From an uncultured virus (IMG/VR IMGVR_UViG_3300036781_000633) (lineage: Duplodnaviria; Heunggongvirae; Uroviricota; Caudoviricetes), in IMG/VR virus record IMGVR_UViG_3300036781_000633: a stretch of DNA of 64,000 bases; one strand, 5' to 3'. This document shows positions 38,980 through 64,000 of this stretch, in pieces. Under the pieces are notes generated by a model. That model did no database searches. It was not told the DNA's origin and saw only the letters and a list, made by a program, of their open reading frames with translations. Positions within the stretch are counted from its first letter, which is position 1. Every line of letters begins with the position of its first letter. A program made the position numbers and the translations under genes.

Positions 38980-41043
38980 TCAGGAGTTGAAAATATACAC
39001 GAGTCCGTTGGTGCCGTTGCCACCATGTAGCCCGGCTCCGCTCCCGGTGCCGCCGGTACCGGCATTGACCTGCGGGGTTGGCAGGAGATTCGTCGGCGTG
39101 GTGGTCACGATCACGACGAGCCCGCCGCCGCCGCCGCCGCCGCCGCCGGGATTGACGCCGCCACCCGCATTGCCGCCGTTGCCGCCGTTGGCTTGAATCT
39201 GCAGCGAGCTACTGATCGTCCGAAAAATGAGCGCCACGCAACCACCCGGACCGCCGCCGCCGCCGCCGCCGCCGGAACCGGCACCGCCACCACAGCCGCC
39301 GCCGCCTGCATTGCCGCCAGCCCAGATTTGAACAGCCGCTGAATTCGGGACAAAAAACGAGAAGCACTGAGGCGCGAAAAGACTCGTGCCGAGTGCTGTG
39401 TACGGTGTCGCGCTTCCACCATTACCCCCAATAGCAGTCCCCGAACCGCCGCCGCCGCCCGCGCCAACACCGGTTGCATTGCCGCCCGACGAATTGCCGC
39501 CGGTTCCCGTGAATCCTTCGTACAAATTTCCGGGATTGAGTGTGCCGACACCTCCTCCAGCGCCCGTCGTGCCGCCGGCACCGCCTGGCTGCAGCGTCCG
39601 CATGTAGACGCTTCCCGGGACCGGTGAGGTTCCGGCCACGCCTCCCACATTCGCCGCGCCACCATTGCCGCCGTTGCCACCACTACATTGCAGGAGACCC
39701 GGCCCGGCGGCATTGCCAGATCCGAAGACGCGCCATCCCGCCGTCTTGACGGTGATGCCCACATTGATCGTCATGTTGTGCGGACGCAGATCGCGCGTCA
39801 TCGTGTAGACGTTCGCGACCGGCACCATGCCAGCGACGGTAGCGATGCCGTCGAAGACAAGATCTCCGTCTCCACCCGTGCCGAAGATGCCTGCGGCCGA
39901 TGCTGATGCCGTCGTCGCGCCGACTTGACCGATGCCTCGCCATCGAGCGCTCGCACCGTCATAGATCAGGATGACGACGGAACCCGGGCCGATGAGCAGC
40001 GACACCGCGCCCGGCAATATGAAGCGATTCGCCGCCGCTGACCCGGTGTCTTCGTTGGTCAGCGTGATGTTGAGCGACGTATCGATGTTCTCGAGCACGA
40101 GCATCCGGCCATCGACCTGCGCCACGAGACCGGTCAGGGTCGCCGATCCACTCAACGCCTGACGCAGCACGCCTGCCACCGCCAACCCGACCGGGTTGTA
40201 GTCGTTCACCGAGCCTGTGATCGCCGCCGGGCTGGTCACGGTGTTGATCTGCACGAACGGGACGGCCTGCGTCATGTTCTCGGCGATCCACCGCGCTGTG
40301 GTGCCATCGTAGAGGAACGTGATCGCGCCGTCGGTCAGGAGCTCCCATGTGCCGCCACCGGGCATCGAGAACCGGTTCGCGGCCGTGGAGTTGGTGTCCT
40401 CGCTGGTGATCGTCAGGATCCCAGTTCCGAGGTTCTGGATCGTGATGCGGCGGCCGGCGCCTTGGGCGGTCAGCCCCGACAGGATGGCGACGACGCCCAC
40501 ATTGACCGCTTGGCGGATCGTCGCGGCGTTGGCGAGTCCCGCCGGGTTGTAGTTGTTCGCCAGCCCTGCCGGCAAGCTCGCCGGCGTGATCGCTCCAGAG
40601 AACGTAACCGCCCCCGTGACGATGAGGCTCGGCAGCGTGGTCGAGCTCGTGCTCGCGAGCATCTTCCAGCGCGATGTCGTGGTGTCATACCGGAGCCAGC
40701 ACGCGGAGCCCGGCGTCAGGACAGCGATGGCCGCGCCGGGAAGGTCGAAGCGGTTCGCCGCCGCCGAGCCCACATCCTCGTTGGTCAGGGTAACGTTGCC
40801 GACGTTGGCGGCGAGCGCGTAGAGGACCACCATCCGCCCGACGGGCTGGGCGGCGAGGCCCGTGATCGATGCCGCCGAGCTCGCCGTGAGGTTGACGACG
40901 ACGATGGAGGCGAGGTTGGCCGGAGCGAAATCGTTCTGGGTGGTGCCGCCCAGATCGGCAGATGTGGTGGTGCCCAAGAGCGACAGCGCCGTGATGTTGG
41001 CGAGCGCGAGGTCCGCAACATCGGCAGTCAGTGGCTTGGACAT
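38980..41043 (-). CDS. spike/fibre protein: three internal repeats plus Gly-rich C-terminal domain
   Basis: Three N(D/N)xxP...EDxxSxAANRF...YD units, then FGTGGDGD and poly-Gly runs. Confidence 0.75.
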   Translation of the reverse strand: MSKPLTADVADLALANITALSLLGTTTSADLGGTTQNDFAPANLASIVVVNLTASSAASITGLAAQPVGRMVVLYALAANVGNVTLTNEDVGSAAANRFDLPGAAIAVLTPGSACWLRYDTTTSRWKMLASTSSTTLPSLIVTGAVTFSGAITPASLPAGLANNYNPAGLANAATIRQAVNVGVVAILSGLTAQGAGRRITIQNLGTGILTITSEDTNSTAANRFSMPGGGTWELLTDGAITFLYDGTTARWIAENMTQAVPFVQINTVTSPAAITGSVNDYNPVGLAVAGVLRQALSGSATLTGLVAQVDGRMLVLENIDTSLNITLTNEDTGSAAANRFILPGAVSLLIGPGSVVILIYDGASARWRGIGQVGATTASASAAGIFGTGGDGDLVFDGIATVAGMVPVANVYTMTRDLRPHNMTINVGITVKTAGWRVFGSGNAAGPGLLQCSGGNGGNGGAANVGGVAGTSPVPGSVYMRTLQPGGAGGTTGAGGGVGTLNPGNLYEGFTGTGGNSSGGNATGVGAGGGGGSGTAIGGNGGSATPYTALGTSLFAPQCFSFFVPNSAAVQIWAGGNAGGGGCGGGAGSGGGGGGGGPGGCVALIFRTISSSLQIQANGGNGGNAGGGVNPGGGGGGGGGLVVIVTTTPTNLLPTPQVNAGTGGTGSGAGLHGGNGTNGLVYIFNS

Positions 41044-41297
41044 GAGACCCGGTTATGAAGCGGGCGGCTCCGTCCACGATCCGCTCTCGGGCGGATCTTG
41101 GGTGGCGTGGGGGACGGGAATGTCGTGCCCTTGCAGGACGTCGTGACCGCTGCGGATGAAGTCCTCAGGGAGGAAGCGCACGGCGATCACGAGCCCACCG
41201 TCCGGCTGCACCGAGACCACGTAAGCATCTCGAGTGCGATGTGGCTCGCCGTCGGAGTCGACAAAATGGAAGAGGACTCTGTCTCCGGGATTCGGCA

Positions 41298-43526
41298 TCA
41301 GCCTGCGACCTCGATGGTGAAGACGACATTTTTGGGGTTGGTGGCGGGTGCCTGGGACTTCGTGAGAACGACGGAGAGCGCGTCACCTGCAACCACCGTA
41401 GTGCCGCCGGTGGGACCGCCGACCGCAGTGGTAAATGCGATCACGATGCTGCCAGACTGCGCCACGTTATTTTTCCGGACGGTGTAAGTGATGTTGCCGG
41501 CGCCAGTGCCGACGACCTGGTGCACGCGCCAGTTGCGGATCGCGGCGGGTCTTGGCATGCGCGGCTCGATCGTCGTTGCGCTCGCGACCGCCAGATCTGA
41601 ACCGGGGGCCAGGAATAGCGCCGTGAGCGCAGCTCCGGTATCAATCACGCCGAACTGAATCTCGTGCGGCCCCACGCCGATCCAACCACCCGTGCCACCC
41701 GAGACACCAGCACCGGTCTCCTTGACGAAGAGCGTAGTAGCGACGCCGCCGCCCTGGTCGGTGACCATTGACCCAGCGGGTGCCGACACGTTGGCGACCG
41801 GCGTGGTGGCCGTGATCGCAATCTGCGTCCCCGGTTCGGCATTGCCCGAGCCGGTGACGCCGACATTCGTAGTAGGCGGCGCCATCGTCGCAGTCGAGCC
41901 GCCGATGAGAAGATTGTCCGCGCAGTACCGCCATCCCGCGAAGACCGCTCCGCCGCTCGAGACCCACTCGACGACCGTGGCGGTCCCCGGGTTTCGCACG
42001 TAGCACGACCGAACGGACGCATCGGTTAGATTATCGGCATTCGAAGCCCCGACTTGGATGCCAGACACCGTGTTCGCGGCAGAGCCGACGTCGGGGACCA
42101 CGAGCTCGCCCGAGTACGCGATGTGACTGGTCGCCCCAAGAGCGCCGCTCCGGTATTTCAACGCGACCGTCGGATTGACCGAGATCAGCCCTGACCAGAC
42201 GTTCCCGGACAACACCACCTGGCTGCCGCCTTGCGAATCGAAGAACCCGGCACCATTGCCGACCGCACCACAACTCGCCCCGCGGACCACGTTGTCCATA
42301 ACGGTCATCTGAAGCGGATCGGTCGTGGTGGCGATCAACGCGACTGGGATCCGAGCAAGAGTGGCATCCGTGACGTTGAAGGAGTTCGCGATCAGGGCGA
42401 GATTGGTGATCGAGTCCTGGAGCGAGATCGCCCCGGCGGCCGTGGTTGGCGAATCGAGGACGAGGACGTTGCCGATCAGGATGTGGCGGTCGACGAGTTG
42501 TCCGACGATGTCGCCGCCGTGCGCGATGGTGTTGTAGCCCGCGATGAGTCGAGTGGCTGCCGCACCCGACGTCCCGCCCAGCGTGAACGCCGGCGAGCCC
42601 TGGGAGTTGTGGTCGAGTTGGTTGCCGATGATGTCGATGTCGGTGATTTGCGCGGTACCCGATGGCTCGAAGTCGATCAACTGACCGTTCAGGACACCGG
42701 TCATGAAGTTGTAGGCGATCATCACGCGTGTGACGCCGCGCTGGAAACTCACGATCGACCGGCTGCCGCGCAGTCCGGTGCCCGGATCGTGGCCGTCGCA
42801 CGAATTGTAGAACACGCGCGTATCGTTCGTCGGAACGCCCGTGTCACCGGCGAGCCGAATCTGATCGCCGTGCGCCTGGCCGAAATAGCAGCCGATGACA
42901 TCGCAATCCTGCGTCCCCGAGCCCGCCGGATCCGCAATGGCGCCTTGGGGCTGGATCAGGTGGTTCTGGTTCGTCGCCTCGACGTTGGTGGCGAGCGCCG
43001 AGTCCATGAACAGGCTGATGAAGCGAATGCCCTTGGTGAAGTTGTGGAGCCGGAACAACACGGTCGACGTCGCGTGCTGGTCGCCCGAGATCCGAATCTG
43101 GCTGGCCTTGCCGTCGCCCAGAAACGTCAGGTTCTGGACGTTCGACACGGACAGGAGATCCTGGGTGCCAGCGTTCGGCTTGAGCACCGCGAACTGCCCG
43201 GGCGGCACGTAGATGGTCCCGCCGCCGGCCGCCTGCGCCGCCGCGATAGCCGCATTGATCGCCGCCCGGTTATCCGTGACACCATCACCGACCGCGCCGA
43301 AATCGACGATGTTGAAGATCCGGAGGTCGTAGTTCTGGCGCGACCAGCCCGCGATGTCGTGTGGCGAGGTCTTCAGGTAGATCTCGTGCTGGCTGCCGCT
43401 CGCGCGCAAGAGCCACGACGCGAGCGGTGCCGACGGAACCGGCTCGGTGACGTCGGGCGCCGTCGCGCTGCCGATCCAGTCAGCGAGGAGTGTATGGGCT
43501 CGGTCCGCGGATAACTCCTTGGCCAT
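41298..43526 (-). CDS. beta-helix (pectate-lyase-3-like) spike/depolymerase
   Basis: NIVDFGAVGDGVTDNRAAINAAI...IYVPPG; Asn-ladder repeats. Confidence 0.85.
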   Translation of the reverse strand: MAKELSADRAHTLLADWIGSATAPDVTEPVPSAPLASWLLRASGSQHEIYLKTSPHDIAGWSRQNYDLRIFNIVDFGAVGDGVTDNRAAINAAIAAAQAAGGGTIYVPPGQFAVLKPNAGTQDLLSVSNVQNLTFLGDGKASQIRISGDQHATSTVLFRLHNFTKGIRFISLFMDSALATNVEATNQNHLIQPQGAIADPAGSGTQDCDVIGCYFGQAHGDQIRLAGDTGVPTNDTRVFYNSCDGHDPGTGLRGSRSIVSFQRGVTRVMIAYNFMTGVLNGQLIDFEPSGTAQITDIDIIGNQLDHNSQGSPAFTLGGTSGAAATRLIAGYNTIAHGGDIVGQLVDRHILIGNVLVLDSPTTAAGAISLQDSITNLALIANSFNVTDATLARIPVALIATTTDPLQMTVMDNVVRGASCGAVGNGAGFFDSQGGSQVVLSGNVWSGLISVNPTVALKYRSGALGATSHIAYSGELVVPDVGSAANTVSGIQVGASNADNLTDASVRSCYVRNPGTATVVEWVSSGGAVFAGWRYCADNLLIGGSTATMAPPTTNVGVTGSGNAEPGTQIAITATTPVANVSAPAGSMVTDQGGGVATTLFVKETGAGVSGGTGGWIGVGPHEIQFGVIDTGAALTALFLAPGSDLAVASATTIEPRMPRPAAIRNWRVHQVVGTGAGNITYTVRKNNVAQSGSIVIAFTTAVGGPTGGTTVVAGDALSVVLTKSQAPATNPKNVVFTIEVAG

Positions 43527-45682
43527 TAGATGAGCTCCATCGTCGCAATCGCATTGGTCTGTCCGGCCGCCACGACGCCCGCCTTGACCACTGAGATCGA
43601 CAGCAGGTCTCCGGCCACGACCGTGAAGGAATGCGTGACGTCGCTGACGTTGGTGGGTGCCGCCGCCGCGTTGTCGGCGGAGACGGTCAGCGTGGTATCG
43701 ACGCCGTTCTTGCGTACCGTCCAGGTGACCGCACCTGCCGTGGTCCCGGTGCCTTGGATGCGCAGGAAGAGGTTGCGCACCGTACCCGGTCGAGTGACCG
43801 CCATCTGGATCTCAGTGGCGGTCGGTAGCGTGATGTACCCGGGCGCCATATAGACGGCAGTGGCGACGGTCGTCGTGGTGGCAACACCGAACGTGAGGAT
43901 GTCGCCGCCGATGCCGATCCACCCGGTGTTGCCGGTGCCGCTCTCCTTGTAGTAGACGGTCGTCGAGTCGCCGCCCGAACGGTTCAGGTACATCGAGCCG
44001 ATGCGCGCGGTAATCGCGGCCTCGGGCGTTCCGATGCCGGTCAAGAGTTGCGAGCCGAACGTGCCACCGTTCCATCCGATGATCGGATAGACCGTCGCGG
44101 TACCCGTCAGATTGATATCGCCCGTGCTCGAGTCGAAGTTGTTCGCGGCATACATCAACTTGCCGGTAAAGGACGCCTCGGCTCCGTTCTTCTCGAGGCC
44201 GTATGCCATCTGGTCGCCGAAGTTGCCGTTGACGGCGACATTGTTGATGGTCGAGCCGTTGATCTTCAGCAGCACGCCCGCCGCGAACGTCCCGGCGGCT
44301 GCCGTGATCTGGTTGCCTGCGATCAGCGTGTCGTCGACGACCGCCGTGGTCGCGTCGATCTCGATGCCGTAGACCGTGGTCGCGCCCGCGGTGTTCGTGT
44401 TGCGACAGAGATTGTTTCCGATCGACACCACCTTGATGTCGGCGGCGAGAATGAAGCCCGCGGAGGCAACCTCGTTGATCAGCATGTTGTTGCCGATACG
44501 AAGCCGGGTCGGCGTCTGGCCACCGGAAGTCTCAAGGCTGATACAGACCCCCGCCGAGGATCCGCCCGAACGGTCGATCGTGTTGCCCGAGAAGGCGAGA
44601 TCGGTCACGAGCCCGAACATGCGCCACGCCGCATTGCCGCTGGCAAACGCGCCCGACGTCTGGACGTTGCCCACAACGGTGGCTTGGATGGTCTGCGACA
44701 TCTCGACGAAGCCGCCGAAGATGATGTTGTTGGAGAACGTCGCGATGGAGACGAGCGTGGTCGTGGGACCGACCACTTGCATCGCGAGTTTGTCCGCGCC
44801 CGTGTGGATGAGCTCGTTGTTGCTGACGACGAGGCTCGAGATCGCGACATCCGTGGTGGAGTCGACGACAATCTCGCGCAGGCAGTTCGTCAGGTAGTTC
44901 TCGGTGACGAACGCATACGACACACCCTCCTTGATGTGGATGCCGTACTCGCCGACGCCATCAAACAGGCACTCGGCCACCCAGACGCGCTGGATGAGGT
45001 TCGCGGCGGCACCACGAAAGCGGACCCCGTCGCCCGACCCCGCGACCATGCCGGTGAACTTGCACCGGATGACGGAGATATCGAGCATGTTGCCGGCACC
45101 GAGCACCGTCGACGCATGGATGAGGTTGTCCGAGGTCGCGGGGTTGGTGACGCCGGATCCGTCGAGGACCATATCCATGAAGCGGATCGCCGAGCACGAG
45201 CCGCGAAGCTGGAACAGGTCCCAGGCGGCGGCGCCCGCGTTGCCGGACATCTTGATCACGGTCCCAAGCCCGGCGCCGACGAGTTGCATGTTCGTCGCGC
45301 CGTTCAAGATGAAGGAGTAGCCCAGCACGCCGTTCTGCGAGCACAGATACGTACCGCGCGGAAAGTAGACCTGGCCCTTGTTCGTGGACGCCTGGCACGC
45401 GTCGATAGCGGCCTGGATGGCGACCCGATCATCGGTGATGCCGTCGCCGACCGCGCCGTAGTCGCGGACGTTGTACCAGGCGAAGCTGTTCGCGAGCTTG
45501 GTCCACGCGGTGGCGGCAGCACCGGTCTTGAGCCACGCCTCGCCGATGGCTCCGCCGTTCTGGCGGAGGTAGAACGATGCGAGTTGCGCCGCGAGACCGC
45601 CGCCCGCGCTCGGATCGGCCGTCCCCGAGAGGAGGTCGACGATCTTGAGGCGGATTTGGTCGGCGGAAAGGATCTTGCTCAC
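43526..45682 (-). CDS. second beta-helix spike/depolymerase
   Basis: NVRDYGAVGDGITDDRVAIQAAI...VYFPRGTY; many xxGN/NN repeats. Confidence 0.85.
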   Translation of the reverse strand: MSKILSADQIRLKIVDLLSGTADPSAGGGLAAQLASFYLRQNGGAIGEAWLKTGAAATAWTKLANSFAWYNVRDYGAVGDGITDDRVAIQAAIDACQASTNKGQVYFPRGTYLCSQNGVLGYSFILNGATNMQLVGAGLGTVIKMSGNAGAAAWDLFQLRGSCSAIRFMDMVLDGSGVTNPATSDNLIHASTVLGAGNMLDISVIRCKFTGMVAGSGDGVRFRGAAANLIQRVWVAECLFDGVGEYGIHIKEGVSYAFVTENYLTNCLREIVVDSTTDVAISSLVVSNNELIHTGADKLAMQVVGPTTTLVSIATFSNNIIFGGFVEMSQTIQATVVGNVQTSGAFASGNAAWRMFGLVTDLAFSGNTIDRSGGSSAGVCISLETSGGQTPTRLRIGNNMLINEVASAGFILAADIKVVSIGNNLCRNTNTAGATTVYGIEIDATTAVVDDTLIAGNQITAAAGTFAAGVLLKINGSTINNVAVNGNFGDQMAYGLEKNGAEASFTGKLMYAANNFDSSTGDINLTGTATVYPIIGWNGGTFGSQLLTGIGTPEAAITARIGSMYLNRSGGDSTTVYYKESGTGNTGWIGIGGDILTFGVATTTTVATAVYMAPGYITLPTATEIQMAVTRPGTVRNLFLRIQGTGTTAGAVTWTVRKNGVDTTLTVSADNAAAAPTNVSDVTHSFTVVAGDLLSISVVKAGVVAAGQTNAIATMELI

Positions 45683-45690: not shown

Positions 45691-46146
45691 TCATGCTTGG
45701 AAGATCAGAAACGAGAGGATGTCGCCGGCGGTCAGGTTCGCGCTGGTGATGACCCGGAACGTGGTCGTGGTGCGATCTCCCGCGAGCGTGTCGGGCAGAT
45801 CGAGGACCGGGATCAGCGTGACGCCCTTGGGCGACCAGTAGATCTCGTACGTGTCGTTCGGTAGCGCTGCTCCGGTGATGTTGACATTGAAGTCCGAGCC
45901 CTCGCCGCCCGTCGCGACGTAGTCCGTGGCGCGGAGGTTGGTGTTCTCCGCGATGAGCTTCGTCCACGCGGTGTTCGCACCACCGGTCTTGAAGTAGATG
46001 CCCGGGGTGTCGGTGCGCATCAGAAGCGAACCGAGCGGAGCTGCATAGCCGCCACCCGCCGTCGGGTCCGAGTTGATGGACGCGATGGTGGGCGTGACCG
46101 TACCGTTGGGATAGGCGACGACGGCGGATGCGAATGTTTTGGACAT
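45691..46146 (-). CDS. spike adaptor-like protein
   Basis: Shares its N-module with the spikes and its C-module with 46204-47070. Confidence 0.65.
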   Translation of the reverse strand: MSKTFASAVVAYPNGTVTPTIASINSDPTAGGGYAAPLGSLLMRTDTPGIYFKTGGANTAWTKLIAENTNLRATDYVATGGEGSDFNVNITGAALPNDTYEIYWSPKGVTLIPVLDLPDTLAGDRTTTTFRVITSANLTAGDILSFLIFQA

Positions 46147-46203: not shown

Positions 46204-47070
46204 TCACGTCGGATCGACCGCCTCGAAGTAGATGGTATCGCCAGCAGTGAGTGCCCCGGTGGTGATGCACCGGAACAGCAGCGTCGTCCGATCTCCGGCG
46301 AGGATGTCGGGAAAATCGAAGTCGACGATCATGTTGACGCCCTGGCACGTGCCGCTGACGAGATACGAGTCATTCGCTCGAGCGACGGGGAGGTTGACGC
46401 TGAAGTCCGAGCCTTCCGCGCCGGTCGCGTGGTAGAGGAACCGCTGCGAGTTGCCGCCACCGCCACCGCCACCGCCCTGATCATTGGTCGCGCCGACGTT
46501 GGCGATGGGCGTGCCGGGGTTGACGGTCGGCGTGCCGACGCGCCGGGCTCGCATCCAGTGCGCGGTGAACTCCGAGCTCTGGAGACCGGGCTGGTTGAAC
46601 GACATCACGGTGCCCCAGGCGGTCGTGCCGTCCTCGGACTCCTCGATCAGCACGGTGCCGCGGAACGCGCTGCCGACCTGCACGCTCTTGAATAGCCCCA
46701 GGCTCGAGGTGTCGACGGCCGCGCCGACGCCATCGGCGGCCGGCACGGGGATCGCCGCGAAGCCGGTACCGTCATCGGAGCCGCCGCAATCGACCTCGGG
46801 CGTACCGCCAGCTCGCGAGTTGAACGCGGACACGCGGGTCCGCAGCCAGTGCGCGGCGACCTGGATGGTCACCTGGCCGGGATTGGGGAACGACGCGACG
46901 GCGACCCATGTGCCCGCCTGCAGCGGATCGAGGTTCGCCTCGACGGCGATGATCGCGGCCAGATCGCCCGAGACCACGAGGGTCTTGAACGATCCGAACG
47001 AGCTCACGTCGACGGGCGTACCGGCGCCGTTCGCCGACGGAGTGGGGAGGTTGACGAATTGATTGGCCAT
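46204..47070 (-). CDS. beta-rich virion protein with two internal repeats
   Basis: PSANGAGTPVDVSSFGSFK versus PAADGVGAAVDTSSLGLFK. Confidence 0.65.
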   Translation of the reverse strand: MANQFVNLPTPSANGAGTPVDVSSFGSFKTLVVSGDLAAIIAVEANLDPLQAGTWVAVASFPNPGQVTIQVAAHWLRTRVSAFNSRAGGTPEVDCGGSDDGTGFAAIPVPAADGVGAAVDTSSLGLFKSVQVGSAFRGTVLIEESEDGTTAWGTVMSFNQPGLQSSEFTAHWMRARRVGTPTVNPGTPIANVGATNDQGGGGGGGGNSQRFLYHATGAEGSDFSVNLPVARANDSYLVSGTCQGVNMIVDFDFPDILAGDRTTLLFRCITTGALTAGDTIYFEAVDPT

Positions 47071-49410: not shown

Positions 49411-49686
49411 CTACGCCGCCGACTCGCTGCGCGCCTTGCGCTTTTTCATCATCATGAAGGCCAGGACGCCGATGCCGCCGATCAGGATGATCGTCGTCGT
49501 CGACGGACCTTGCTGCGCGGCGTACGCCGCCTGGAGGTCGGCCGCTTGCTGCTGCTGCGCGCCGATGGTCCGCTGGGTGGTCCCGAACCAGTTCACGACA
49601 CCGCCCACCGCGCTGCCGATGGTGTCGAGGATGCCGCCCATGCCGGAGTAGCCGGGGCGCGAGATCAGGTTGGACTTGACGAACAT
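49411..49686 (-). CDS. small tail-anchored membrane protein
   Basis: GYSGMGG; TTTIILIGGIGVLAFMMMKKRK. Confidence 0.7.
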   Translation of the reverse strand: MFVKSNLISRPGYSGMGGILDTIGSAVGGVVNWFGTTQRTIGAQQQQAADLQAAYAAQQGPSTTTIILIGGIGVLAFMMMKKRKARSESAA

Positions 49687-49689
49687 GAC

Positions 49690-55468: not shown

Positions 55469-56824
55469 TTAGAAACCGCCGCGGAAGATGCCCTGGTTCA
55501 GGGAACCGGGGTTGTCGTACTGGCTGCCCGCACCCGGGATCTGTTGGGTGAAGGAGCGAGCCGGCACCGGAGCCACGAACTGACGACCCGGCACCTGCAT
55601 CAGCATCGAGTTGCTCGAGACGCCCCCGAGCATATCGTTGCCGAGGTCCTCTTCGACGCCGAGCTCTTCTTCGACGCCGAGCTCCTCTTCGACGCCGAGT
55701 TCCTGCATCGCATCCGAGCCCACCGCGATGTAGTCGCTGAGGGCCAGGTTGTCGTTGATCGGCGACACGTAGTCGCCCACCGCGATGTAGTCGCCCACGC
55801 CGACGTACTCGCCCACGCCGATCATCGACTTGATCGAAGCCGGCATGAACGCCGACACGAGCGTATCGAGGACGTTGAGGGCCGAGCCCAGCATGGCCGC
55901 GTTGCGGTACTTGCCGAGCGCGCTGACCTTCTCGGTCAGGAAGCCGACGCCGAAGAGCGAGCCGATGGCGAGCACCGGGGCCTGCAGCGACCCCAGGTTC
56001 GACACGCCCGGGATCATCGGACCGATCTTGCTGACGATCAGCCGCGACGCGTAGAGGCCGAGCAACACCGGGAGCGCATCCTTCGCGACCTGCATCAGGC
56101 CCGAGATGCTCGGGTTGCGCCGGTAACGACGGCTGTACCGATGGTGCAGCGCGCGACGGCCACGCCGACGCGACCGGCGATGCGTGCGGCGCGCCCGACG
56201 CCGACGTCGGCGCGACGGGTTGCCCAGCATCGTGCCATGACGTCCCTTGGCCATCACGATGGTCGCGCTCGACCGACGCCGACGACGGATCCGGCGGGTC
56301 TTCCGTGCCCGACGCCGACGACGACGCGGGCTGCGACGTGCCCGGCGGCGACGCCGACGGGTGGTCTTCCGCGACCGACGGGCGCGTCGACGACGACGCT
56401 TCGGGGCGGCGGTTGCCTTCCGGCGACGGCGGCGACGCTTCGGGGCGGCAGTCGACTTGCGACGACGCCGACGACGCTTGGGCGACGCCGAGGCGCGGCG
56501 ACGACGGCGATGAACTGCGCGACGTGCCTTGCGCGCGCGACGGGGCTTGCGACGACGAGCCATCTTGCTCACTCCTTTACGGCGCGCCTTGCGCCGGGAA
56601 ACCTTGGTTGCACGCTTCGCCTTGCGCGCTCGAGCGCGAGCTCGGCGCTTTCGGACAACGCCACCGCCCGCGCGCTTTTTGCGCCAGTACGCCGCTAGTG
56701 CCTTGGGCATCTTGCCCTTGCGGGAGCGGCGAGCGGGATTGACCTTGCCAATCCGTGCTCGACCACGCACCACGGCGCCTCTGCGTCCTCTCCTCCGCGG
56801 TCCGTTTACGAACAAAATCGGCAT
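55469..56824 (-). CDS. protamine-like Arg-rich membrane protein (putative genome-condensing core protein)
   Basis: About 230 aa of Arg/Lys runs, hydrophobic segments, VG(E/D)Y repeats and ELGVEE x3. Confidence 0.7.
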   Translation of the reverse strand: MPILFVNGPRRRGRRGAVVRGRARIGKVNPARRSRKGKMPKALAAYWRKKRAGGGVVRKRRARARARKAKRATKVSRRKARRKGVSKMARRRKPRRARKARRAVHRRRRRASASPKRRRRRRKSTAAPKRRRRRRKATAAPKRRRRRARRSRKTTRRRRRRARRSPRRRRRRARKTRRIRRRRRSSATIVMAKGRHGTMLGNPSRRRRRRARRTHRRSRRRGRRALHHRYSRRYRRNPSISGLMQVAKDALPVLLGLYASRLIVSKIGPMIPGVSNLGSLQAPVLAIGSLFGVGFLTEKVSALGKYRNAAMLGSALNVLDTLVSAFMPASIKSMIGVGEYVGVGDYIAVGDYVSPINDNLALSDYIAVGSDAMQELGVEEELGVEEELGVEEDLGNDMLGGVSSNSMLMQVPGRQFVAPVPARSFTQQIPGAGSQYDNPGSLNQGIFRGGF

Positions 56825-57107
56825 AGCTCTCCAGGTCCTCGTTTGTCCCCATGACCCGGAGAGGTGCATGGCGGGGCGACTCCGGATTAGGTCGACATAT
56901 AAGGAAGGTGACGTCAACCCCCTCTGTGGAAGTTTCCACCCGGACATACCGCGATTCCGCACCGTTTGCCGGGTCACGGTTTCGGATGCCAATTACCGAG
57001 CGCTCACGGTGCCGGGATCGGTTTTCGATGGCTGATCGACTGCGTTATGGGATCGTGAGATAAGAAGATCTCGCAACCCGAATATTTTCACCCACAAGGA
57101 TCGACCC

Positions 57108-57517: not shown

Positions 57518-58126
57518 CTACTCGCCGCCGATTCCGCAGCGTAGCTTGATGTATCCCGCGACGAGCGCGGCAAGCACGGTGATAGCCGCGCCCAACCACT
57601 TGAGCTTCGTCCGGCGCGACGTTTTCTTCGCGTCCAGATCGTCGTCGATCTTCGCGCTCTTCTTTTTTGTCCCGAGGGCAATCTCGGACAGCGCGCGCTT
57701 GTGGCGTCGTTCCTCCGCACGTTCGATAGAGCCGGCGAGGCCATCGAGTTTGCCAACGACCTCGTGGGTCAGCGCGGTGTTCTCGAGCAGATGCTCATGC
57801 ATCGCGTCGGCCTTGCGGTCGAGGCGGTCGATGTCAGATTTTTGGGCGAGGAGTTGCGCCTGGGTCTCCTTGCGGAGTTGCTCGACACCATCGAGCGTCG
57901 ACTTCGTTTGGCGCTGCGCGACGCGCGCGCGCATCTCGACCTTCTCGATCGTTGGGACTCGGGGATCGGCCAGAGCGCGCTCCATCTCGCGGAACGCGGG
58001 CGATCCGAGCGGCGGGGTCTTGCCCTCGAATGGATCGGTCAGCCGAGGCGGCTCGCCAAGCGCTCTCCGCACACCGGTCGGTGGTGTGCGGGGTCGGTTC
58101 TGATCGCGTCGATCGTCATCGGTCAT
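57518..58126 (-). CDS. coiled-coil protein with C-terminal TM
   Basis: Heptad helices; WLGAAITVLAALVAGYI. Confidence 0.65.
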   Translation of the reverse strand: MTDDDRRDQNRPRTPPTGVRRALGEPPRLTDPFEGKTPPLGSPAFREMERALADPRVPTIEKVEMRARVAQRQTKSTLDGVEQLRKETQAQLLAQKSDIDRLDRKADAMHEHLLENTALTHEVVGKLDGLAGSIERAEERRHKRALSEIALGTKKKSAKIDDDLDAKKTSRRTKLKWLGAAITVLAALVAGYIKLRCGIGGE

Positions 58127-58137: not shown

Positions 58138-58623
58138 TCAGCCGACGATGCCGCGGCCCTCTACGCGAAGACTACCGCCCCAGATCATCGCAAGCACCTT
58201 CGACTTGCCCTCGACGACGTACAGGCACCGGCCGTCCCCCGGAGACGCGTAGAGCTCGCATCGGGTGCACTCGGCTTCGATCTCCTCGCCGTTCTTCTCG
58301 AACGAGAACCCCAAGCTCTTGCCAAGGAGCACGAGTGCCTCGGCGTTCGCGAACTCCGGCGGCACGTCGGTGTCAGCCTTGCCGTCGGTCAGGCATAGCT
58401 TCACGCCCGGATCGATCTCGTGGATGTACGACAGGGGGCGCCTGGGCTTCTTGAGCGTCGCCGGGTCGACCTTGCCGCTCTCGTACGTCACCCACTTCGC
58501 CGGACCCGCGAGCCGCACGCGCTTGGGGATCGCGAAGCCGTCCTTGAACTCGCCGATCTTCTTCGGCTCGTAACGGTTGAACCGTTTGTACAAAGCAACG
58601 GCATCTCTCGGCGCTTCCCTCAC
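58138..58623 (-). CDS. hypothetical soluble protein in the structural module
   Basis: GTG start coupled to the upstream stop; ends GRGIVG. Confidence 0.6.
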   Translation of the reverse strand: MREAPRDAVALYKRFNRYEPKKIGEFKDGFAIPKRVRLAGPAKWVTYESGKVDPATLKKPRRPLSYIHEIDPGVKLCLTDGKADTDVPPEFANAEALVLLGKSLGFSFEKNGEEIEAECTRCELYASPGDGRCLYVVEGKSKVLAMIWGGSLRVEGRGIVG

Positions 58624-59381
58624 GTCGATACTCCGGCGCCCTTCCTTCGCGTTTTGCCGAACTGCATCAGCACCCACCCCGCGCCGCCGATGATCACGAT
58701 CCACTTCGCGTAGGTCCAGATGTCGGTGAGGTCTCCGCTGACGTGATAAACGAGGTCGCCGACGTTCGCGACGACGCCTGCGATCTTCGACACGATGCCC
58801 CACACCACATTGAACCCGGCCTGGAACGTGCCGATCACGGACGCGAGCCACGGCATGTTGCACGTGAGGTACGCTGCCGTCGCGATGGCGTTGTACGACG
58901 CCTGCATCGAGTCGATCACGTACTGCTTCAGTCCCGGCGAATCGATGACGGTCGCGCCCTGTTGGATGGCCGCGTTGTACTGCGCAGTGAGCTCGAGCCC
59001 CTTCTGGGTCTGCGCGGTGATCGCGTTGTACGCGTCCATCGTCTTCTGCTGCGAATCGCTACTGGGAAGCGGCGCCTTGATCAGCGCGTCCTTCGCTGAC
59101 GCCGCGAGTTGGTAGGCAGCGAGGATGGCGGCGTTGAAGTCGTCGGGCGTGTAGTAGCCGCTCGGCTGCCACTGCGCGTTCGTCTGATCGACCGTCGCCT
59201 GCAGCGTGGCCATCTGCGCGGTCATCTGCGTCTGGCACTGCGAGTCCCGGAACGCGCTCGAGAGCCCGATGCTGCCGGTGACGCCGCTGAGAACGTCTCC
59301 GATGTCGTCGAGGATGCCGCTCAAGGCGCTCTTCCTTGAACGCGCGTGCGGCCGGCGCCGCCGAGTCATTGCATAGCTCAT
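58620..59381 (-). CDS. helical tail-anchored membrane protein
   Basis: MSYAMTRRRR...ALSGI; WIVIIGGAGWVLMQFGKTRRK. Confidence 0.7.
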   Translation of the reverse strand: MSYAMTRRRRPHARSRKSALSGILDDIGDVLSGVTGSIGLSSAFRDSQCQTQMTAQMATLQATVDQTNAQWQPSGYYTPDDFNAAILAAYQLAASAKDALIKAPLPSSDSQQKTMDAYNAITAQTQKGLELTAQYNAAIQQGATVIDSPGLKQYVIDSMQASYNAIATAAYLTCNMPWLASVIGTFQAGFNVVWGIVSKIAGVVANVGDLVYHVSGDLTDIWTYAKWIVIIGGAGWVLMQFGKTRRKGAGVST

Positions 59382-59689
59382 CGGAGCCCCTTCCATGCGA
59401 AGTACGCGATCACGCCGCCGACGATCCACGTCCACGGGCTCGAGATGTCGACATCCCCCAGTGCGCCCGCCGACCCCATCGTAGCGATCCGTCCCATCGG
59501 CATCGCACCAGAGCCGACCTTGCGCGCGTCCGGCGGCACCCGCCACGCCGCCTGGTCTGGCGTCGCGCCGAGCGGCGAGCGCCCGAGGCGAACCGGTGGC
59601 GATCCGGCGTGCGTGCCGTTACCCGGGGCGTCCGACTGGTAGTAGTCGTACGACCGCGTGTCCGGCTTATATACGGAGTACGTGGTCAC
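59378..59689 (-). CDS. small tail-anchored membrane protein
   Basis: ALGD; WTWIVGGVIAYFAWKGLR. Confidence 0.7.
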   Translation of the reverse strand: MTTYSVYKPDTRSYDYYQSDAPGNGTHAGSPPVRLGRSPLGATPDQAAWRVPPDARKVGSGAMPMGRIATMGSAGALGDVDISSPWTWIVGGVIAYFAWKGLR

Positions 59690-59692: not shown

Positions 59693-60139
59693 TTACGGTT
59701 TCTTGAACAGCGACCAGAGCGTGAGGGCTCCTAGCGCGAGGCTGCCCCACATGAACAGATCGTCCATCGAGTCCGAGAACTTGATCGACAGCTTCCCGCC
59801 GCCGCATCCACCCCCGCCGCCGCATCCACATCCGCAGTCCCCCATCCCGCTCATGCTGCGCTTCATCGAAGTAGTCGGGACGTACGTGCGCGCCTGACCG
59901 GCTGGGCTCCGGATGTACGACGGCGCCTTGATGTCACCCAGCGCGGCCCCCATCGGCATGACCTCCGGTGCGCCCGGCTTGGGCAGCACGAGGGTCTTGT
60001 CACCGAACACCGAGCCCTCGAGCGTGGCGCCACCGAGCGAGCCCAGCGACTTGGCATCGGCTGCGCGCGCCTGAACGGGCGGACCGTTCCGCCACGACAT
60101 CGGGCCGCCTTGCTTCTGAAACGCGTAGCCGTATTTCAT
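59693..60139 (-). CDS. small tail-anchored membrane protein
   Basis: Multiple LG/MG sites, GMGDCGCGC, C-terminal TM. Confidence 0.7.
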   Translation of the reverse strand: MKYGYAFQKQGGPMSWRNGPPVQARAADAKSLGSLGGATLEGSVFGDKTLVLPKPGAPEVMPMGAALGDIKAPSYIRSPAGQARTYVPTTSMKRSMSGMGDCGCGCGGGGGCGGGKLSIKFSDSMDDLFMWGSLALGALTLWSLFKKP

Positions 60140-60156: not shown

Positions 60157-60531
60157 TTAGCGAACGAAGAACAGGTAGGCGGCAAGCAGGCCACCGCCGA
60201 TCAGAAGGTATGTCGTCGTCGACATGCCCTGCGATCCGAACGGCGTACAGATCCCGCTCGCGTTGAGGCCCTGACCGGGCGGGCAAGCGTTCACGCAGTT
60301 GCCGTAAAAGGACGAGTAGACCGCACCCGCGCCGCAGTTGCCCGGGACCGGAGCTCCGGCGGGGGCGATGACGGGATCGGCGACGATGTTGCCGTTCATG
60401 TCGACGGCACCCATCGACGTCGCCGGCCGATAGCTGCGAGCCTGCCCGGACGGCGTGCGGAGGATGTCGCCCATCGAGGTGGTCGGGCGATAGCGGCGAG
60501 CTTGGCCCACCGGGGTTCGGAGAATGCTCAT
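60157..60531 (-). CDS. Cys-rich tail-anchored membrane protein with duplicated leader
   Basis: ILRTPxGQARxYRPxTSMG twice; TTTYLLIGGGLLAAYLFFVR. Confidence 0.7.
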   Translation of the reverse strand: MSILRTPVGQARRYRPTTSMGDILRTPSGQARSYRPATSMGAVDMNGNIVADPVIAPAGAPVPGNCGAGAVYSSFYGNCVNACPPGQGLNASGICTPFGSQGMSTTTYLLIGGGLLAAYLFFVR

Positions 60532-61280
60532 CGTCGGCTGCCTTTCGTAGTCGAGCGTCTCTTCGAGGCGGCGCTCCTGCCCATCAACTGATAGATGACG
60601 AAGCCGCCGACCGCGACGACCGCGACTTGCTGGATCGTGGAGAGGCCACCGAAGGCGCCCAGGATGTCGCCGGCAGCGCTCGCACCTGGCGGCTTGAGCG
60701 TCAGGCCGGACTTCGTGTTGATGCTGCCGCTCGAGGTTGCCTGGGGAACCGTCGCGGGCGCGCCGATGTTGTTCGCGAACATCGTGACCTGGTTGGCGAT
60801 CACGTCACAGCTCGAGGCGACGCCGACACACGAGGAGGTGTCACCGCCAACCGTCTGGCCGGACGCGCTCTGGACCTGCTTCAGCAGCGTGATCGTCGCC
60901 GGGCCGATGTCGCCGTCGACCGTGATCTTGTTGAACCCCTTCACGAACGCGACGCGGTTCATCTGCGACTGGAGGTTTTTCGCGGCGTTGAGCGCCGGAA
61001 AGTCGACCGCCTTGCAGACGCCGCCCATGTTCTTCCAGTCCGAGGAGGAGATCGATCCACCGCTCTGCAACTGGTCGGCGTTGTCGCCGGGGTTGCCGGT
61101 GATGTTGATGTCGCCCGATGACGATCCGCCGGAGTCGACGCATCCACCGGCCGCATCCGACCACACTTGAGCCCCGGAACAGAACACGTCGGTCATGTCA
61201 TCCGATGCGGCGTCGCCCATTCGGATGAGATTGACCGACGATCCTCGATCGTTGATGGGGCGACTGTTGCGTAGGTACAT
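60528..61280 (-). CDS. tail-anchored protein with peptidoglycan-binding-like motif
   Basis: LQSQMN...VDGDIGPAT; MGD site; C-terminal TM. Confidence 0.7.
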   Translation of the reverse strand: MYLRNSRPINDRGSSVNLIRMGDAASDDMTDVFCSGAQVWSDAAGGCVDSGGSSSGDINITGNPGDNADQLQSGGSISSSDWKNMGGVCKAVDFPALNAAKNLQSQMNRVAFVKGFNKITVDGDIGPATITLLKQVQSASGQTVGGDTSSCVGVASSCDVIANQVTMFANNIGAPATVPQATSSGSINTKSGLTLKPPGASAAGDILGAFGGLSTIQQVAVVAVGGFVIYQLMGRSAASKRRSTTKGSRR

Positions 61281-61325: not shown

Positions 61326-61808
61326 TCAGGCCGCGCGCCTCTTCTTAGAAAAGTGACGATAGACGAAGTACCCGGCGACAGCGTACGTGATGATCCCGCC
61401 TGGCACGTCCGGCAGGAAGTCCAGGAAGCCCTCCAGGCTGTTCAGGAGGTGGGGATCCGGCGGCGTCGGGCGGAGTCGCTTGACCGCCTGCACGCTATAT
61501 GGCGGCGCGCCGGTCGCCGAGCTCGTGCGCGCGAGTAGCGTGCTGACGTTGTCGATCCATGGCAGCGACATCCAGCCTGGCCCTACGACCTGCGCGAGCG
61601 CATCCGCGGTGTCGTCGTCGAGGTAGCCGGTGACCGGTACGCCCAGGTGTTCCTGGATCCGCTTCACCATCAGGATGATCTGCGGGCTCTTCGGGTCGGA
61701 CGTAGCCGGCGCCGAGAATGAGTCCTGAACCATCATCGTCGCGTTGAAGTCACCGACGCCCAGCTGCTTCAGCAGCGAGCGGACGTTGCGGTTGTCGTAG
61801 TTGGTCAT
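61326..61808 (-). CDS. tail-anchored protein with peptidoglycan-binding-like motif
   Basis: VKRIQEHLGVPVTGYLDDDTADAL; C-terminal TM plus KKRR. Confidence 0.7.
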   Translation of the reverse strand: MTNYDNRNVRSLLKQLGVGDFNATMMVQDSFSAPATSDPKSPQIILMVKRIQEHLGVPVTGYLDDDTADALAQVVGPGWMSLPWIDNVSTLLARTSSATGAPPYSVQAVKRLRPTPPDPHLLNSLEGFLDFLPDVPGGIITYAVAGYFVYRHFSKKRRAA

Positions 61809-61828: not shown

Positions 61829-62206
61829 TCAGTCCTTCGAGATCATGTACACCGCGAAGATCCCGACGCCGCCGAGAAGGAGCAGCGTGGTCGTATCGAG
61901 GCCGGATGGCGCCGGATATGGGGCGCCCGGCGTGTTCGGCCGCAAAGCATTACCAAAGAGCCCGCCGATAACCCCCCAGATCGGATTACTTGATGATGAC
62001 GAGCTCGAGCCGCCCGAGCTGGCATATGGGGTCGCACCCGGAATCGGCGTGCTCGAGATGACGTTGCCGCTCGCGTCGATGCACTCGTTCTGCGTGCCGT
62101 CGATGGAGACGGCCATGCGCGCACACGTATCTCCGAGCGCGCCGCGCAGTGACGTGGTGGGGCGAAAGCGTCGGGCGGAACCGCGGGGGCTCGGTAGGTA
62201 GCTCAT
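61829..62206 (-). CDS. small tail-anchored membrane protein
   Basis: MSYLPSPRGSARRFRPTTSLRGALGD; TTTLLLLGGVGIFAVYMISK. Confidence 0.7.
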   Translation of the reverse strand: MSYLPSPRGSARRFRPTTSLRGALGDTCARMAVSIDGTQNECIDASGNVISSTPIPGATPYASSGGSSSSSSSNPIWGVIGGLFGNALRPNTPGAPYPAPSGLDTTTLLLLGGVGIFAVYMISKD

Positions 62207-64000
62207 TTCACGGTTCCTCCGGCGGCCGCAGCCGCCTTTTTCTTGCGATTCGACTTCTTCGCCAACGCAGCAGCCAGCACGGCGCCACCGCCAAGGAGAG
62301 CGATCAGCGTCCAGTTCGTCGGATGTGGGATCGGGATGCACTGGCTGATCCCGTTCCACATGTACCCGTCCGGACAGGTGGGAACCTGCGTCCCACCGCA
62401 GAGTGCCGAGCCGACGGTGACCCCGGCACCCGCCGCCGCCCCATAGACTGGGTTCGCCTTGCCTGCACCCTGCGCCGCAGCATTCGCGGCGCCCGGTTGC
62501 GTCAACACGCTGCACGCGAGACCACCGACGGCCGCGACGGCATCATTGACGGCGGTCAACACTGCCTGCGCGGCATCCGAGAGCTTCGAGGGGACGTAAG
62601 CAATCAGGTCCCACAACGGTTGCCACCAAGGCTTCTGCGGCAGCGGCGCGAAGATGAGGCGCATGAACGCGGGCGGGTACGTCACCGTTTGGCTGCCGTC
62701 CGGGTTGGCGGTCACCGTGTATGGATTGCTCATGATGAACATCCACATGCCCCAGTCTTTGTCGTCGGCGTTCGAGTGTTTGACGCCCTGGCGATCTATC
62801 GTGCTTGGCATCACGTCGTAGATCGGCGGATCAGATCCGTCTGATCGAAACTTCACCGCCGGTACCGCCGTGAACTGTTGCGAGTCATAGGACAGCGTGC
62901 CGTCGCTGTTCTGCGTGATGAGGTTCATGTCGAACGTGTTGCCACCTTCGACCGTCATGTCAGGCGTCAGGCCGATGGCGGCGTAGAAGTCGGCAGCCGT
63001 CGGAGACTGGTAGACCAGGTTCACCAGTTTTGCGCCCGGATCGCCAGCGTTGCACCCGCGCGAGCCACAATGGTAGTAGGAGCCCGACTGGGGCGAGCCC
63101 GGGCCGACGAGCTGACTGGCGGGCCATGCGGTTTTATACGCGCCGTTGTCGCCAAGCGGCCTCGTCAACTGCTTCAGCATCCACGGGCGGGCCGCCGCTG
63201 GGATCTGATTGGGCGTCGCGAAATCGACCGCGTACGAGCCGTGGGCAGGATCAAACTTGAACGGTCCCACGGTGATCTCGGTCGGCGACACCACCGTGTT
63301 CGAGGTCGAGATCGACGACACGTTCGTGAGCCCGCCTGCGGCGGCGCTCGTGGCGGCAGCGCTGGTGGCTCCCAGGCTGCGTCGTGCGGCGCGCTTGAAT
63401 AAACCGGCCATGGGTGCCGCGGAGCCCATGGCCGAACAGCCGGTGTATCCCGTGCAGCCGCTCAGGCCGCTCGGTCGCTTGCCCTGACCGCGAAGCGTGA
63501 GCTCGGCGATCATGCCCGCCGACATCGCTCGAGACAGCCCGGCGTGGAGTGCCTGCGCGGAGTTCATGCCCTGGCGGCGGAGATCGCGGGCGATCTTTCC
63601 GGTCCGCGCCTCGAGCGACGGGTCGATCGTCGCCAGTGTCTTCTTCAGGTACTTCGCGCGCTGGTTCGTCGGCAGCATCTGCATGCGCGCGAGGATGTTC
63701 GTGGCGGCGGCCTGACCGTACGACGGGAATGGGTCCGGCATCGGCGCGTCGCCGGCGATCCCGCCCAGCCCGTGGAGCGCTTGGCCACCTTGGTGGACAG
63801 GATGGAGTGGCTTCGCCTTGCCGATCCCCAGGATCGCGCGGAGCCATCCGAATGCGTCGGCCGCGCCCATCGACACCGCCTGGCCTTCGTTCGCTGGCAT
63901 GCCGATAGCGGGCGCGACCATGGTGATCTTCTGCGTGCCGCCGCTGTTCGGGACCCGCCGGTCGGAGAGGACCTGGGGGCGGCGGTTCAGGTAGTGGGGG
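62203..64000 (-). CDS. large tail-anchored virion protein, 5' truncated by the window edge
   Basis: Frame stays open past 63921 to the window end; ends WTLIALLGGGAVLAAALAKKSNRKKK. Confidence 0.7.
   Translation of the reverse strand, partial: PHYLNRRPQVLSDRRVPNSGGTQKITMVAPAIGMPANEGQAVSMGAADAFGWLRAILGIGKAKPLHPVHQGGQALHGLGGIAGDAPMPDPFPSYGQAAATNILARMQMLPTNQRAKYLKKTLATIDPSLEARTGKIARDLRRQGMNSAQALHAGLSRAMSAGMIAELTLRGQGKRPSGLSGCTGYTGCSAMGSAAPMAGLFKRAARRSLGATSAAATSAAAGGLTNVSSISTSNTVVSPTEITVGPFKFDPAHGSYAVDFATPNQIPAAARPWMLKQLTRPLGDNGAYKTAWPASQLVGPGSPQSGSYYHCGSRGCNAGDPGAKLVNLVYQSPTAADFYAAIGLTPDMTVEGGNTFDMNLITQNSDGTLSYDSQQFTAVPAVKFRSDGSDPPIYDVMPSTIDRQGVKHSNADDKDWGMWMFIMSNPYTVTANPDGSQTVTYPPAFMRLIFAPLPQKPWWQPLWDLIAYVPSKLSDAAQAVLTAVNDAVAAVGGLACSVLTQPGAANAAAQGAGKANPVYGAAAGAGVTVGSALCGGTQVPTCPDGYMWNGISQCIPIPHPTNWTLIALLGGGAVLAAALAKKSNRKKKAAAAAGGTVK

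Follow-up and report, generated by a model that had tools for sequence, protein, structure and literature searches.

Organization of the late gene region

The viral record IMGVR_UViG_3300036781_000633 was analyzed over a stretch of 64,000 nucleotides (hereafter referred to as the window), with emphasis on the late gene region extending from position 38980 to the window end. This region carries an uninterrupted series of 27 genes on the minus strand, as supported by coding statistics and/or conservation in related genomes, and belongs to an operon of approximately 30 genes. Three of these lie upstream, outside the window, and the operon begins about 3.6 kb past the window end (position 33947 of the contig C12 and 16348 of the segment L001, both introduced below), which corrects the module limit at 64000 implied by the initial annotation. 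Sixteen of the 30 gene junctions measure at most 10 bp, with a median gap of 8.5 bp, calculated from a 31-gene list that omits a few small or uncertain genes. The G+C content lies between 62% and 70% throughout the window.

Half of the module proteins (15 of 30) feature a hydrophobic segment located at most 45 residues from the C-terminus, compared with 2 of the 55 control open reading frames (ORFs) taken from the first 38.5 kb of the window. In these 15 products, a few basic residues follow the terminal hydrophobic segment. Among the 15 calls, a spike protein of 718 amino acids (aa) is probably a false positive, and three more module proteins contain internal or N-terminal membrane segments. 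The initial description of co-oriented, tightly coupled genes rich in membrane proteins was thus confirmed.

Topology and relatives of the replicon

The window represents a permuted, reverse-oriented copy of contig C12 (83,855 bp), which was binned into a metagenome-assembled genome (MAG) of 213 contigs with a completeness of 89.5%. Window positions 17730–64000 correspond to C12 positions 83855–37585, and positions 1–17729 run on from the other C12 end. The sole difference between the two sequences amounts to 57 bp and is located at a perfect two-copy 57-bp tandem repeat (window 4371–4486), indicating that the copy number varies between assemblies. The C12 ends share an overlap of 8 bp, and the end point was bridged by contigs from two soil runs, namely a 4,740-bp contig identical to C12, which may stem from the source sample, and an 8,361-bp contig of about 96% identity originating from a separate study. 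Four relatives rated as complete feature terminal direct repeats of 32–125 bp, and five relatives are classed by IMG/VR as having direct terminal repeats. As deduced from the bridged C12 ends and the terminal repeats of the relatives, the replicon is circular or circularly permuted. The roughly 20 kb outside the window (L001, C12 17600–37590) encode ParB, DNA methyltransferases, DnaJ and proteins of unassigned function; together, the window and L001 cover the whole replicon. No tRNA genes were found, the Rfam scan returned 0 families, and no RNA run was listed for the sequence. The replicon itself was found in soil metagenome runs.

A common gene order was observed in six viral contigs of 75–86 kb. 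All four complete relatives possess nearly the whole operon, the integrase, ParB, a DnaJ-domain protein, a dual-specificity phosphatase, DUF5131, Dam and DUF1643, as well as a 448-aa probable initiator protein. A published description of this virus group was not found in the literature searched, a search that left subscription-only papers and closed supplements aside.

Two adjacent jelly-roll proteins

Two adjacent genes (54753–55328 and 53970–54608; like all operon genes, on the minus strand) encode proteins of 191 and 212 aa and are the most conserved of the family, showing identities of 69–79% and 57–71%, respectively, compared with 26–64% for other module genes. Structure prediction and subsequent structure search described both products as single jelly rolls, preceded in the 212-aa protein by an N-terminal helix of 40 residues. 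Their nearest matches are capsid proteins of Sulfolobus polyhedral virus 1 (SPV1), HHIV-2, HCIV-1, SH1 and P23-77, the top match being SPV1 and not a helvetiavirus. The side-by-side arrangement of two single jelly-roll genes, a trait of the Helvetiavirae, is present here. The 191-aa product is a candidate major capsid protein and the 212-aa product a candidate second capsid, penton or subcapsomer protein.

Both families are widespread, with 632 homologues of the 191-aa protein and 685 of the 212-aa protein on contigs of up to 104 kb. The former group into 242 cluster representatives at 50% identity, and the 120 of the 632 homologues that were listed share 72–94% identity. The capsid candidate was present in soil runs of at least two studies other than those that may be the source. 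Comparison of the 191-aa family with Pfam yielded only DUF7592, below the cut-off and for 5 of 42 members, and no paper mentioning that family was found. BFVD returned only unnamed or weak rows, and the 191-aa protein, the only one searched there, had no match in 50,697 deposited phage records. For a double jelly-roll protein, neither a Pfam nor a PHROG match was obtained across the replicon ORFs. Comparison of PRD1 P3 with the model resulted in TM values of 0.21–0.25, and the Atlas search pointed to the capsid Pfams of P2 and P3 with a score of 0.77, which corresponds to chance level.

Tailed-phage hallmark genes and the HerA-like ATPase

ORF translations of the whole replicon were scanned against Pfam (304 translations; 111 + 80 + 62 + 51), PHROGs (253; 111 + 80 + 62) and, for 51 chosen proteins, NCBIfam. 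The part of the window from 37.7 to 64 kb contributed 111 ORF translations of at least 90 aa. Apart from the label of family phrog_2666, no terminase, portal, HK97 capsid, sheath, tube or tape measure match was obtained over the entire replicon. This agrees with the initial annotation, which had recognized no terminase, portal, HK97 capsid, sheath or tape measure gene in the late region; none was detected among the 111 ORFs. The initial annotation had named such genes in the flanking sequence as its refutation; the profile scans of the remaining 20 kb gave no terminase, portal or HK97 capsid match. Likewise, relaxase, coupling protein and VirB4 profiles found no match in the scanned ORFs.

The initial annotation had also posed the alternative of an A32/FtsK-type packaging ATPase versus terminase and portal. 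Neither of the latter was found, and an FtsK-HerA ATPase is indeed present, but it is not a core gene. This 612-aa protein is encoded outside the late operon (28353–30191, minus strand) and matches HerA in PDB (2.7e-7) and PADLOC (4.2e-19), with only 0.024 for STIV B204. It had no match in any of five relatives, in a search run without a positive control, and no tblastn match in the four complete relatives, where the query genome matches itself by construction. A homologue with 35% identity was detected in the tailed phage MW202482.1, where it is located among replication genes and adjoins the terminase, portal and capsid genes of the phage itself; the Blautia phage gene bearing the terminase label is likewise situated among replication genes. 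The phrog_2666 family, noted for window 28353–30191 (minus strand) and for ON453898.1, matches a HerA-like ATPase that is set among replication genes in two phages. A role of the ATPase as packaging enzyme was rejected on account of its absence from the relatives and its homologue in a tailed-phage replication module; judged by this distribution, it is an accessory gene and not the packaging enzyme of the family. In addition, no ORF with a Walker-A motif was common to C12 and the four complete relatives (five genomes). With no A32/FtsK ATPase in the core gene set, SPV1, which is motor-less, becomes the closest model in place of PRD1 or the sphaerolipoviruses.

Arginine-rich protein, anchored proteins and a shared leader

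Directly upstream of the capsid gene pair, a 507-aa protein is encoded (55469–56992) that contains 113 arginines (22%), 55 of them inside one 100-residue window. Its basic arm ends at an 'RRNP' boundary, after which come a hydrophobic domain and repeats of the acidic LGxEEELG type. This layout recurs in three relatives (G061, G062 and G064; G063 was left out of the count), and the C-terminal domain is 43–56% identical in all four complete relatives. The composition points to a candidate DNA-condensing core protein tied to the membrane. Asn-Pro pairs ending arginine-rich stretches ('RRNP') were noticed in this gene, in 47700–48878 (minus strand) and in 13174–13917 (plus strand).

A common leader, defined as a start of the type M-x(0-2)-[YF] plus [LMIV]G[DAS] within 65 residues, was found in 12 of 30 module proteins, compared with 1 of the 55 control ORFs; an arginine-rich arm often precedes the [LMIV]G[DAS] element. 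The protein at the head of the operon (198 aa) is 63–64% identical in relatives, and Cys119, His157 and Asp174 are invariant in 28 sequences of its family. Transglut_core matched one of these 28 members very weakly (E 0.043), and a PDB profile search of the protein remained without a match. It may represent a putative Cys-His-Asp protease that trims the leader.

Downstream of the operon head, the first gene that reaches into the window encodes a 678-aa, Ala/Gly-rich tail-anchored protein (62203–64000, start at C12 37346) that starts with M-A-Y, ends with a C-terminal membrane segment and is kept in 4/4 complete relatives without any family match. It is followed by a series of leader-bearing proteins: a 160-aa protein with a C-terminal hydrophobic tail (61326–61808; MTNY...VGD; 4/4 relatives), a 250-aa tail-anchored membrane protein (60528–61280; MY...MGD; 4/4), a 148-aa tail-anchored protein with a Cys/Gly cluster (59693–60139; MKY...LGS; 3/4), a 103-aa protein with a C-terminal hydrophobic tail (59378–59689; 4/4) and a 253-aa tail-anchored protein (58620–59381; MSY, basic arm, IGD; 4/4). 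An ORF of uncertain start (58138–58863) features a conserved soluble C-terminal part of about 154 residues, residues 88–241 being kept in 9/9 related loci according to tblastn. The subsequent 202-aa coiled-coil-like, tail-anchored protein (57518–58126) had no tblastn match in relatives.

On the other side of the capsid candidates, a 210-aa tail-anchored protein (53333–53965; leader with MSY, Arg-rich arm and LGD; 3/4 relatives) precedes a 215-aa membrane protein with two hydrophobic segments near its C-terminus (52683–53330), which was recovered in 5/9 related loci with 45–53% identity in four and 26% in the fifth. A tail-anchored protein of 128–131 aa (52156–52551; MGY, RRRRR, MGD) is kept in 4/4 relatives. 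The ORF analysis then placed a 109-aa protein with an N-terminal membrane segment at 51823–52152; it ends in a His/Gly tract, GHHHGGGHGGHGGHGGGHHGGHH, which is possibly metal-binding. Five small tail-anchored proteins, partly conserved in relatives, occupy a stretch of 70% G+C (49411–51823), in which the frames between 49.4 and 51.8 kb were settled by conservation and by starts. They comprise 228 aa (51140–51823), ~135 aa (50416–50823), ~100 aa (50114–50416), 139 aa (49693–50109) and 91 aa (49411–49686); all five start with M-S-Y, M-Y or M-F, and four have a downstream [LMIV]G[DAS]. A soluble, Cys-rich core protein of 160 aa (48885–49367; 4/4 relatives, no family match) and a poorly conserved, acidic 392-aa protein deduced from the ORF analysis (47700–48878) complete this part of the operon.

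Spikes and cell wall enzymes

The distal part of the operon encodes three spikes of the pectate-lyase or depolymerase type. The 718-aa protein (43526–45682; Pect-lyase_RHGA_epim, 2.5e-19) matches nine PHROG families, seven of which are tail, tail-spike or tail-fibre families. Its paralogue of 742 aa (41298–43526; Pect-lyase_RHGA_epim, 2e-14) likewise matches PHROG tail-spike families and is 27% identical to it over 404 residues (E 2e-20). The third spike is a repeat/Gly-rich protein of 687 aa (38980–41043) with a depolymerase C-terminal beta-sandwich (Phage_depo_C, 1.6e-5). An 81-aa protein deduced from the ORF analysis lies between the spikes (41053–41298). An N-terminal head of about 65 residues is common to four spike or fibre proteins, among them the 687-aa spike and, as revealed by head comparison, a 151-aa protein (45691–46146). 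The neighbouring 288-aa protein (46204–47070; 2/4 relatives) contains two tandem repeats of about 100 residues, shares its C-terminal domain with the next gene and is a candidate fibre or receptor binder. Two glycosyltransferase genes are located just upstream of the spikes (35233–37785, minus strand); as SPV1 encodes a glycosyltransferase, too, glycosylation of the virion is possible.

The operon also encodes an M23 metallo-endopeptidase with a C-terminal membrane anchor (47074–47700; Peptidase_M23, 9.5e-8; phrog_7767, 9.2e-9). Its Pfam match is above the cut-off and solid, and the protein is a candidate virion enzyme for opening the peptidoglycan at entry. Outside the operon, a GH25 muramidase (898–1899, minus strand; Glyco_hydro_25, 1.8e-7) represents a candidate endolysin. 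Spikes and anchored wall enzymes had been proposed by the initial annotation and were recovered as the three spikes and the M23 peptidase. Of the wall enzymes or binders that it mentioned, the peptidase is well supported, whereas the PG_binding_1 match of the 160-aa leader protein (E 3.6e-4, 21.1 bits) is weak and falls below the cut-off of 23.

Host and lifestyle

The M23 peptidase, the GH25 muramidase and the soil source indicate that the host is almost certainly a bacterium. A host search with the capsid gene was negative in 60 relatives and in 400 genomes of the same class. In the scan of species genomes, relatives occurred in only four genomes, all of them MAGs with four different taxonomic labels; three of the matches were located on contigs of 68–73 kb and one on a 5.6-kb contig. 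A cluster look-up returned no names. The tetranucleotide usage of C12 is similar to that of its MAG, yet only one of the 40 contigs is more atypical. Composition is thus compatible with membership of C12 in the MAG without establishing it. The designation 'temperate' is unproven and rests only on the conserved ParB and the core tyrosine integrase (2023–3219, minus strand; Phage_integrase, 6.1e-8; phrog_1, 2.9e-16; 42–45% identity in 4/4 relatives). No integrated copy was seen in the species genomes, the 60 relatives or the 400 same-class genomes scanned.

Proposed virion and alternative explanations

Taken together, we consider it reasonably probable that the region represents the late (virion) operon of a double-stranded DNA virus of about 84 kb, circular or permuted in a circular manner, that infects a soil bacterium, that this virus belongs to a widespread uncultured family of 75–86 kb, and that its virion is portoglobovirus-like and motor-less. 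The virion type, including lipid, shell and absence of a motor, was inferred entirely in silico. In the proposed particle, the 507-aa arginine-rich protein would condense the genome and tie the DNA, via its hydrophobic domain, to a lipid vesicle. The membrane would contain about 15 virus proteins fixed by their C-terminal anchors; many of them start with the common M-x-Y ... [LMIV]G[DAS] leader, which may serve in sorting and may be removed by the 198-aa Cys-His-Asp enzyme, itself conserved. The 191-aa jelly-roll protein would form the outer shell, and the 212-aa protein would take the role of a second shell, vertex or subcapsomer component. The three depolymerase spikes, together with two fibre-like proteins that have the same head, may be attached at the vertices, where they would bind surface polysaccharide or break it down. 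The anchored M23 peptidase would breach the cell wall during entry; release of the progeny would fall to the GH25 muramidase. No packaging motor would be required, the particle assembling around the condensed DNA as proposed for SPV1.

The initial annotation had suggested an undescribed large lineage combining a membrane virion with Caudoviricetes-style genes, and this proposal gained support from the jelly rolls, the lack of hallmark genes and the complete relatives of 75–86 kb. In place of the PRD1-like or sphaerolipovirus-like virion type that it named, the nearest model is SPV1. Several observations weigh against the proposed virion. No Foldseek match at E 1e-3 or better was obtained for the folded proteins, the 191-aa and 212-aa families are unrelated in sequence (hhalign probability 0.2), the 191-aa family profile had 0 matches in PDB, and neither jelly-roll protein is related in sequence to any PDB chain. 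Structure prediction covers 2 of the approximately 30 module proteins, and a divergent HK97, portal or double jelly-roll protein could sit among the rest. The absence of a motor was deduced from profile searches and the Walker-A pattern, both of which would miss an ATPase that is deviant in sequence or supplied by the host. The Atlas neighbours bear the label Uroviricota, and the families matched by the spikes are named tail spikes. The HerA-like ATPase matches phrog_2666 (2.7e-19), which is annotated as 'terminase large subunit', probably in error and with the risk of misleading automated annotation. Finally, lipid, particle and host are predictions.

An alternative of the Helvetiavirae type appears unlikely; here, DNA would be loaded into a preformed shell of two jelly-roll proteins with a membrane lining by an ATPase that is divergent, member-specific or borrowed from the host. 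The adjacency of two single jelly-roll genes, known from P23-77, HCIV-1 and SH1, fits this explanation, as do the FtsK-HerA ATPase, which faintly resembles the packaging NTPase B204 of STIV (E 0.024), and the genome of 84 kb, which is large for motor-less assembly. However, that ATPase was not found in the five relatives, no other Walker-A ORF is shared, its nearest phage homologue is located among replication genes in a phage that encodes a terminase itself, and the top structural match is SPV1. Moreover, few structural proteins of sphaerolipoviruses are as conserved as their putative packaging ATPase (PMC12643093). It is similarly improbable that the element is of a pleomorphic or vesicle type, either an enveloped virus lacking an icosahedral shell or a plasmid spread by membrane vesicles, with the jelly rolls serving as spike, matrix or lectin-like proteins. 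A circular replicon with ParB and integrase, the membrane proteins making up about half of the late products, and the missing motor would suit such an element, and jelly rolls also serve as carbohydrate-binding modules (PMC8812541). Nevertheless, both jelly rolls best match shell proteins of icosahedral membrane viruses, the identity of 72–94% among the listed 120 of 632 homologues of the 191-aa protein is typical of a lattice-forming protein, and several vertex-type spikes share a docking head.

A highly divergent, podovirus-like tailed phage (Caudoviricetes) whose hallmarks escape all sequence profiles is very improbable. The capsid genes of some phage groups reportedly went unrecognized for years, and tail-spike-type depolymerases, early genes common to tailed phages and the Uroviricota database labels would all be compatible with it. 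On the other hand, three profile libraries were blank for every hallmark over the replicon, and no Walker-A protein is conserved, whereas terminases are P-loop ATPases. A soluble core protein of portal size is lacking as well, the 678-aa protein being Ala/Gly-rich and tail-anchored and a 623-aa protein being a low-complexity coiled coil, and the most conserved proteins are the jelly rolls. Least plausible of all, to the point of being hardly credible, is a non-viral plasmid of the conjugative or secretion type, in which the membrane proteins and wall hydrolases would form a transfer apparatus. ParB, the integrase, many small membrane proteins, the M23 hydrolase and the HerA/VirB4-superfamily ATPase of this member might be read in that way; yet relaxase, coupling protein and VirB4 profiles remained without matches, the ATPase lacks conservation, the element encodes capsid-like jelly rolls as well as depolymerase spikes and a muramidase, and the relatives are classed as complete viral genomes by IMG/VR and CheckV.

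Comparison with known viruses

Tailless membrane-containing phages are few and small, with genomes of 10–44 kb in representative examples, a picture that a widespread family such as the present one would change. Viruses of the PRD1/PM2 type carry wall-degrading enzymes in the virion. The Tectiviridae and Corticoviridae (PRD1, PM2) resemble the virus proposed here in being tailless and in having an internal membrane and many small membrane proteins, features predicted here from genes. In contrast to them, neither a double jelly-roll protein nor an A32-type ATPase was found, and the genome is 5–8 times larger. Adenovirus has arginine-rich core proteins, and its precursors are cut by adenain at short Gly-containing motifs; the likeness to the arginine-rich protein and the leader is an analogy only, and no homology is claimed. 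With the Helvetiavirae (Sphaerolipoviridae, Simuloviridae and Matsushitaviridae/P23-77), the virus shares the adjacent single jelly-roll capsid genes and vertex spikes, and P23-77 demonstrates that bacteria can host the design of two single jelly rolls. The Helvetiavirae are not known to have an Arg-rich core protein. They conserve an FtsK-HerA packaging ATPase (PMC12643093), whereas none is a core gene here and the only such ATPase lies among the early genes; furthermore, their genomes comprise 16–31 kb (PMC12642351; PMC12643093).

In SPV1, a member of the Portogloboviridae, the outer shell is built from two single jelly-roll proteins; the virion also contains an inner lipid layer, to which subcapsomer proteins belong, and a nucleoprotein core of VP1 and DNA (PMC8459092). 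Both viruses have a pair of single jelly-roll proteins, of which the second is a candidate shell component here, numerous small membrane proteins and a basic DNA-wrapping protein, likewise a candidate here. They further agree in glycosyltransferase and methyltransferase genes, a circular double-stranded DNA genome and the lack of a packaging ATPase (PMC8459092; PMC8812541). The differences are considerable: the genome is four times larger (84 kb versus 20 kb), the host is almost certainly a bacterium and not a hyperthermophilic archaeon, no sequence similarity exists, the candidate core protein is a membrane-linked, protamine-like protein of 507 aa, and depolymerase spikes, integrase, ParB, the shared leader and the putative Cys protease are present here. 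Genome size (83.9 kb), occurrence in soil runs and peptidoglycan hydrolases imply that the virus is not a member of the Portogloboviridae as defined.

Tentatively, and with some doubt, we propose that the soil viruses of 75–86 kb represent the first counterparts of portogloboviruses in bacteria and, by a wide margin, the largest viruses to assemble without a motor, combining membrane-tethered, protamine-like condensation with about 15 protease-matured, leader-tagged anchored proteins and a jelly-roll lattice closing round them. The motor-less, DNA-wrapping membrane design has so far been described only for a small archaeal virus. Compared with known jelly-roll and membrane viruses, the bacterial setting, the size, the absence of a motor and a possible leader-based maturation would be novel. 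If this applies, the jelly-roll and membrane design would scale to 84 kb and could work without a DNA pump, a form thought to be ancestral to one virus kingdom would exist in bacteria, and the portoglobovirus-like ancestor proposed for the Helvetiavirae (PMC8812541) would be placed in both prokaryotic domains, calling for a new high-rank taxon. The leader may possibly represent a new sorting and maturation code for proteins of viral membranes. Since current classifiers file such genomes under tailed phages, virome surveys miscount them.

Second gene cluster and early genes

A second cluster on the opposite strand is kept in all four complete relatives (C12 17358–19768; L001 135–2169, minus strand, and window 3–323, plus strand). 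It encodes a 122-aa protein, beta-rich proteins of 283 and 204 aa and a 250-aa protein with a C-terminal anchor, which may be further virion parts. No family or PDB match was obtained for the cluster, and PDB sequence searches with the 198-, 283-, 204- and 623-aa proteins returned nothing meaningful. The 250-aa protein contains an 'ES...GFYQV' motif, which would suggest a lytic transglycosylase; this assignment is unsupported, as neither a Pfam nor a PDB match was found.

The early genes match families common in tailed phages, namely DUF5131, DUF1643, PAPS reductase, radical SAM, methyltransferases and the integrase, in accordance with the Caudoviricetes-style early genes described initially. 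Among them, a DNA-modification cluster (21378–24452, minus strand), only partly common to the relatives, encodes a radical SAM protein, a QueD-like 6-pyruvoyl-tetrahydropterin synthase (3.9e-30) and a PAPS-reductase-like protein matching SspD, BrxP and DndC, which suggests 7-deazaguanine or phosphorothioate modification. The dual-specificity protein phosphatase (324–896, minus strand) is a core gene with 40–47% identity in 4/4 relatives and is unusual in a bacterial virus.

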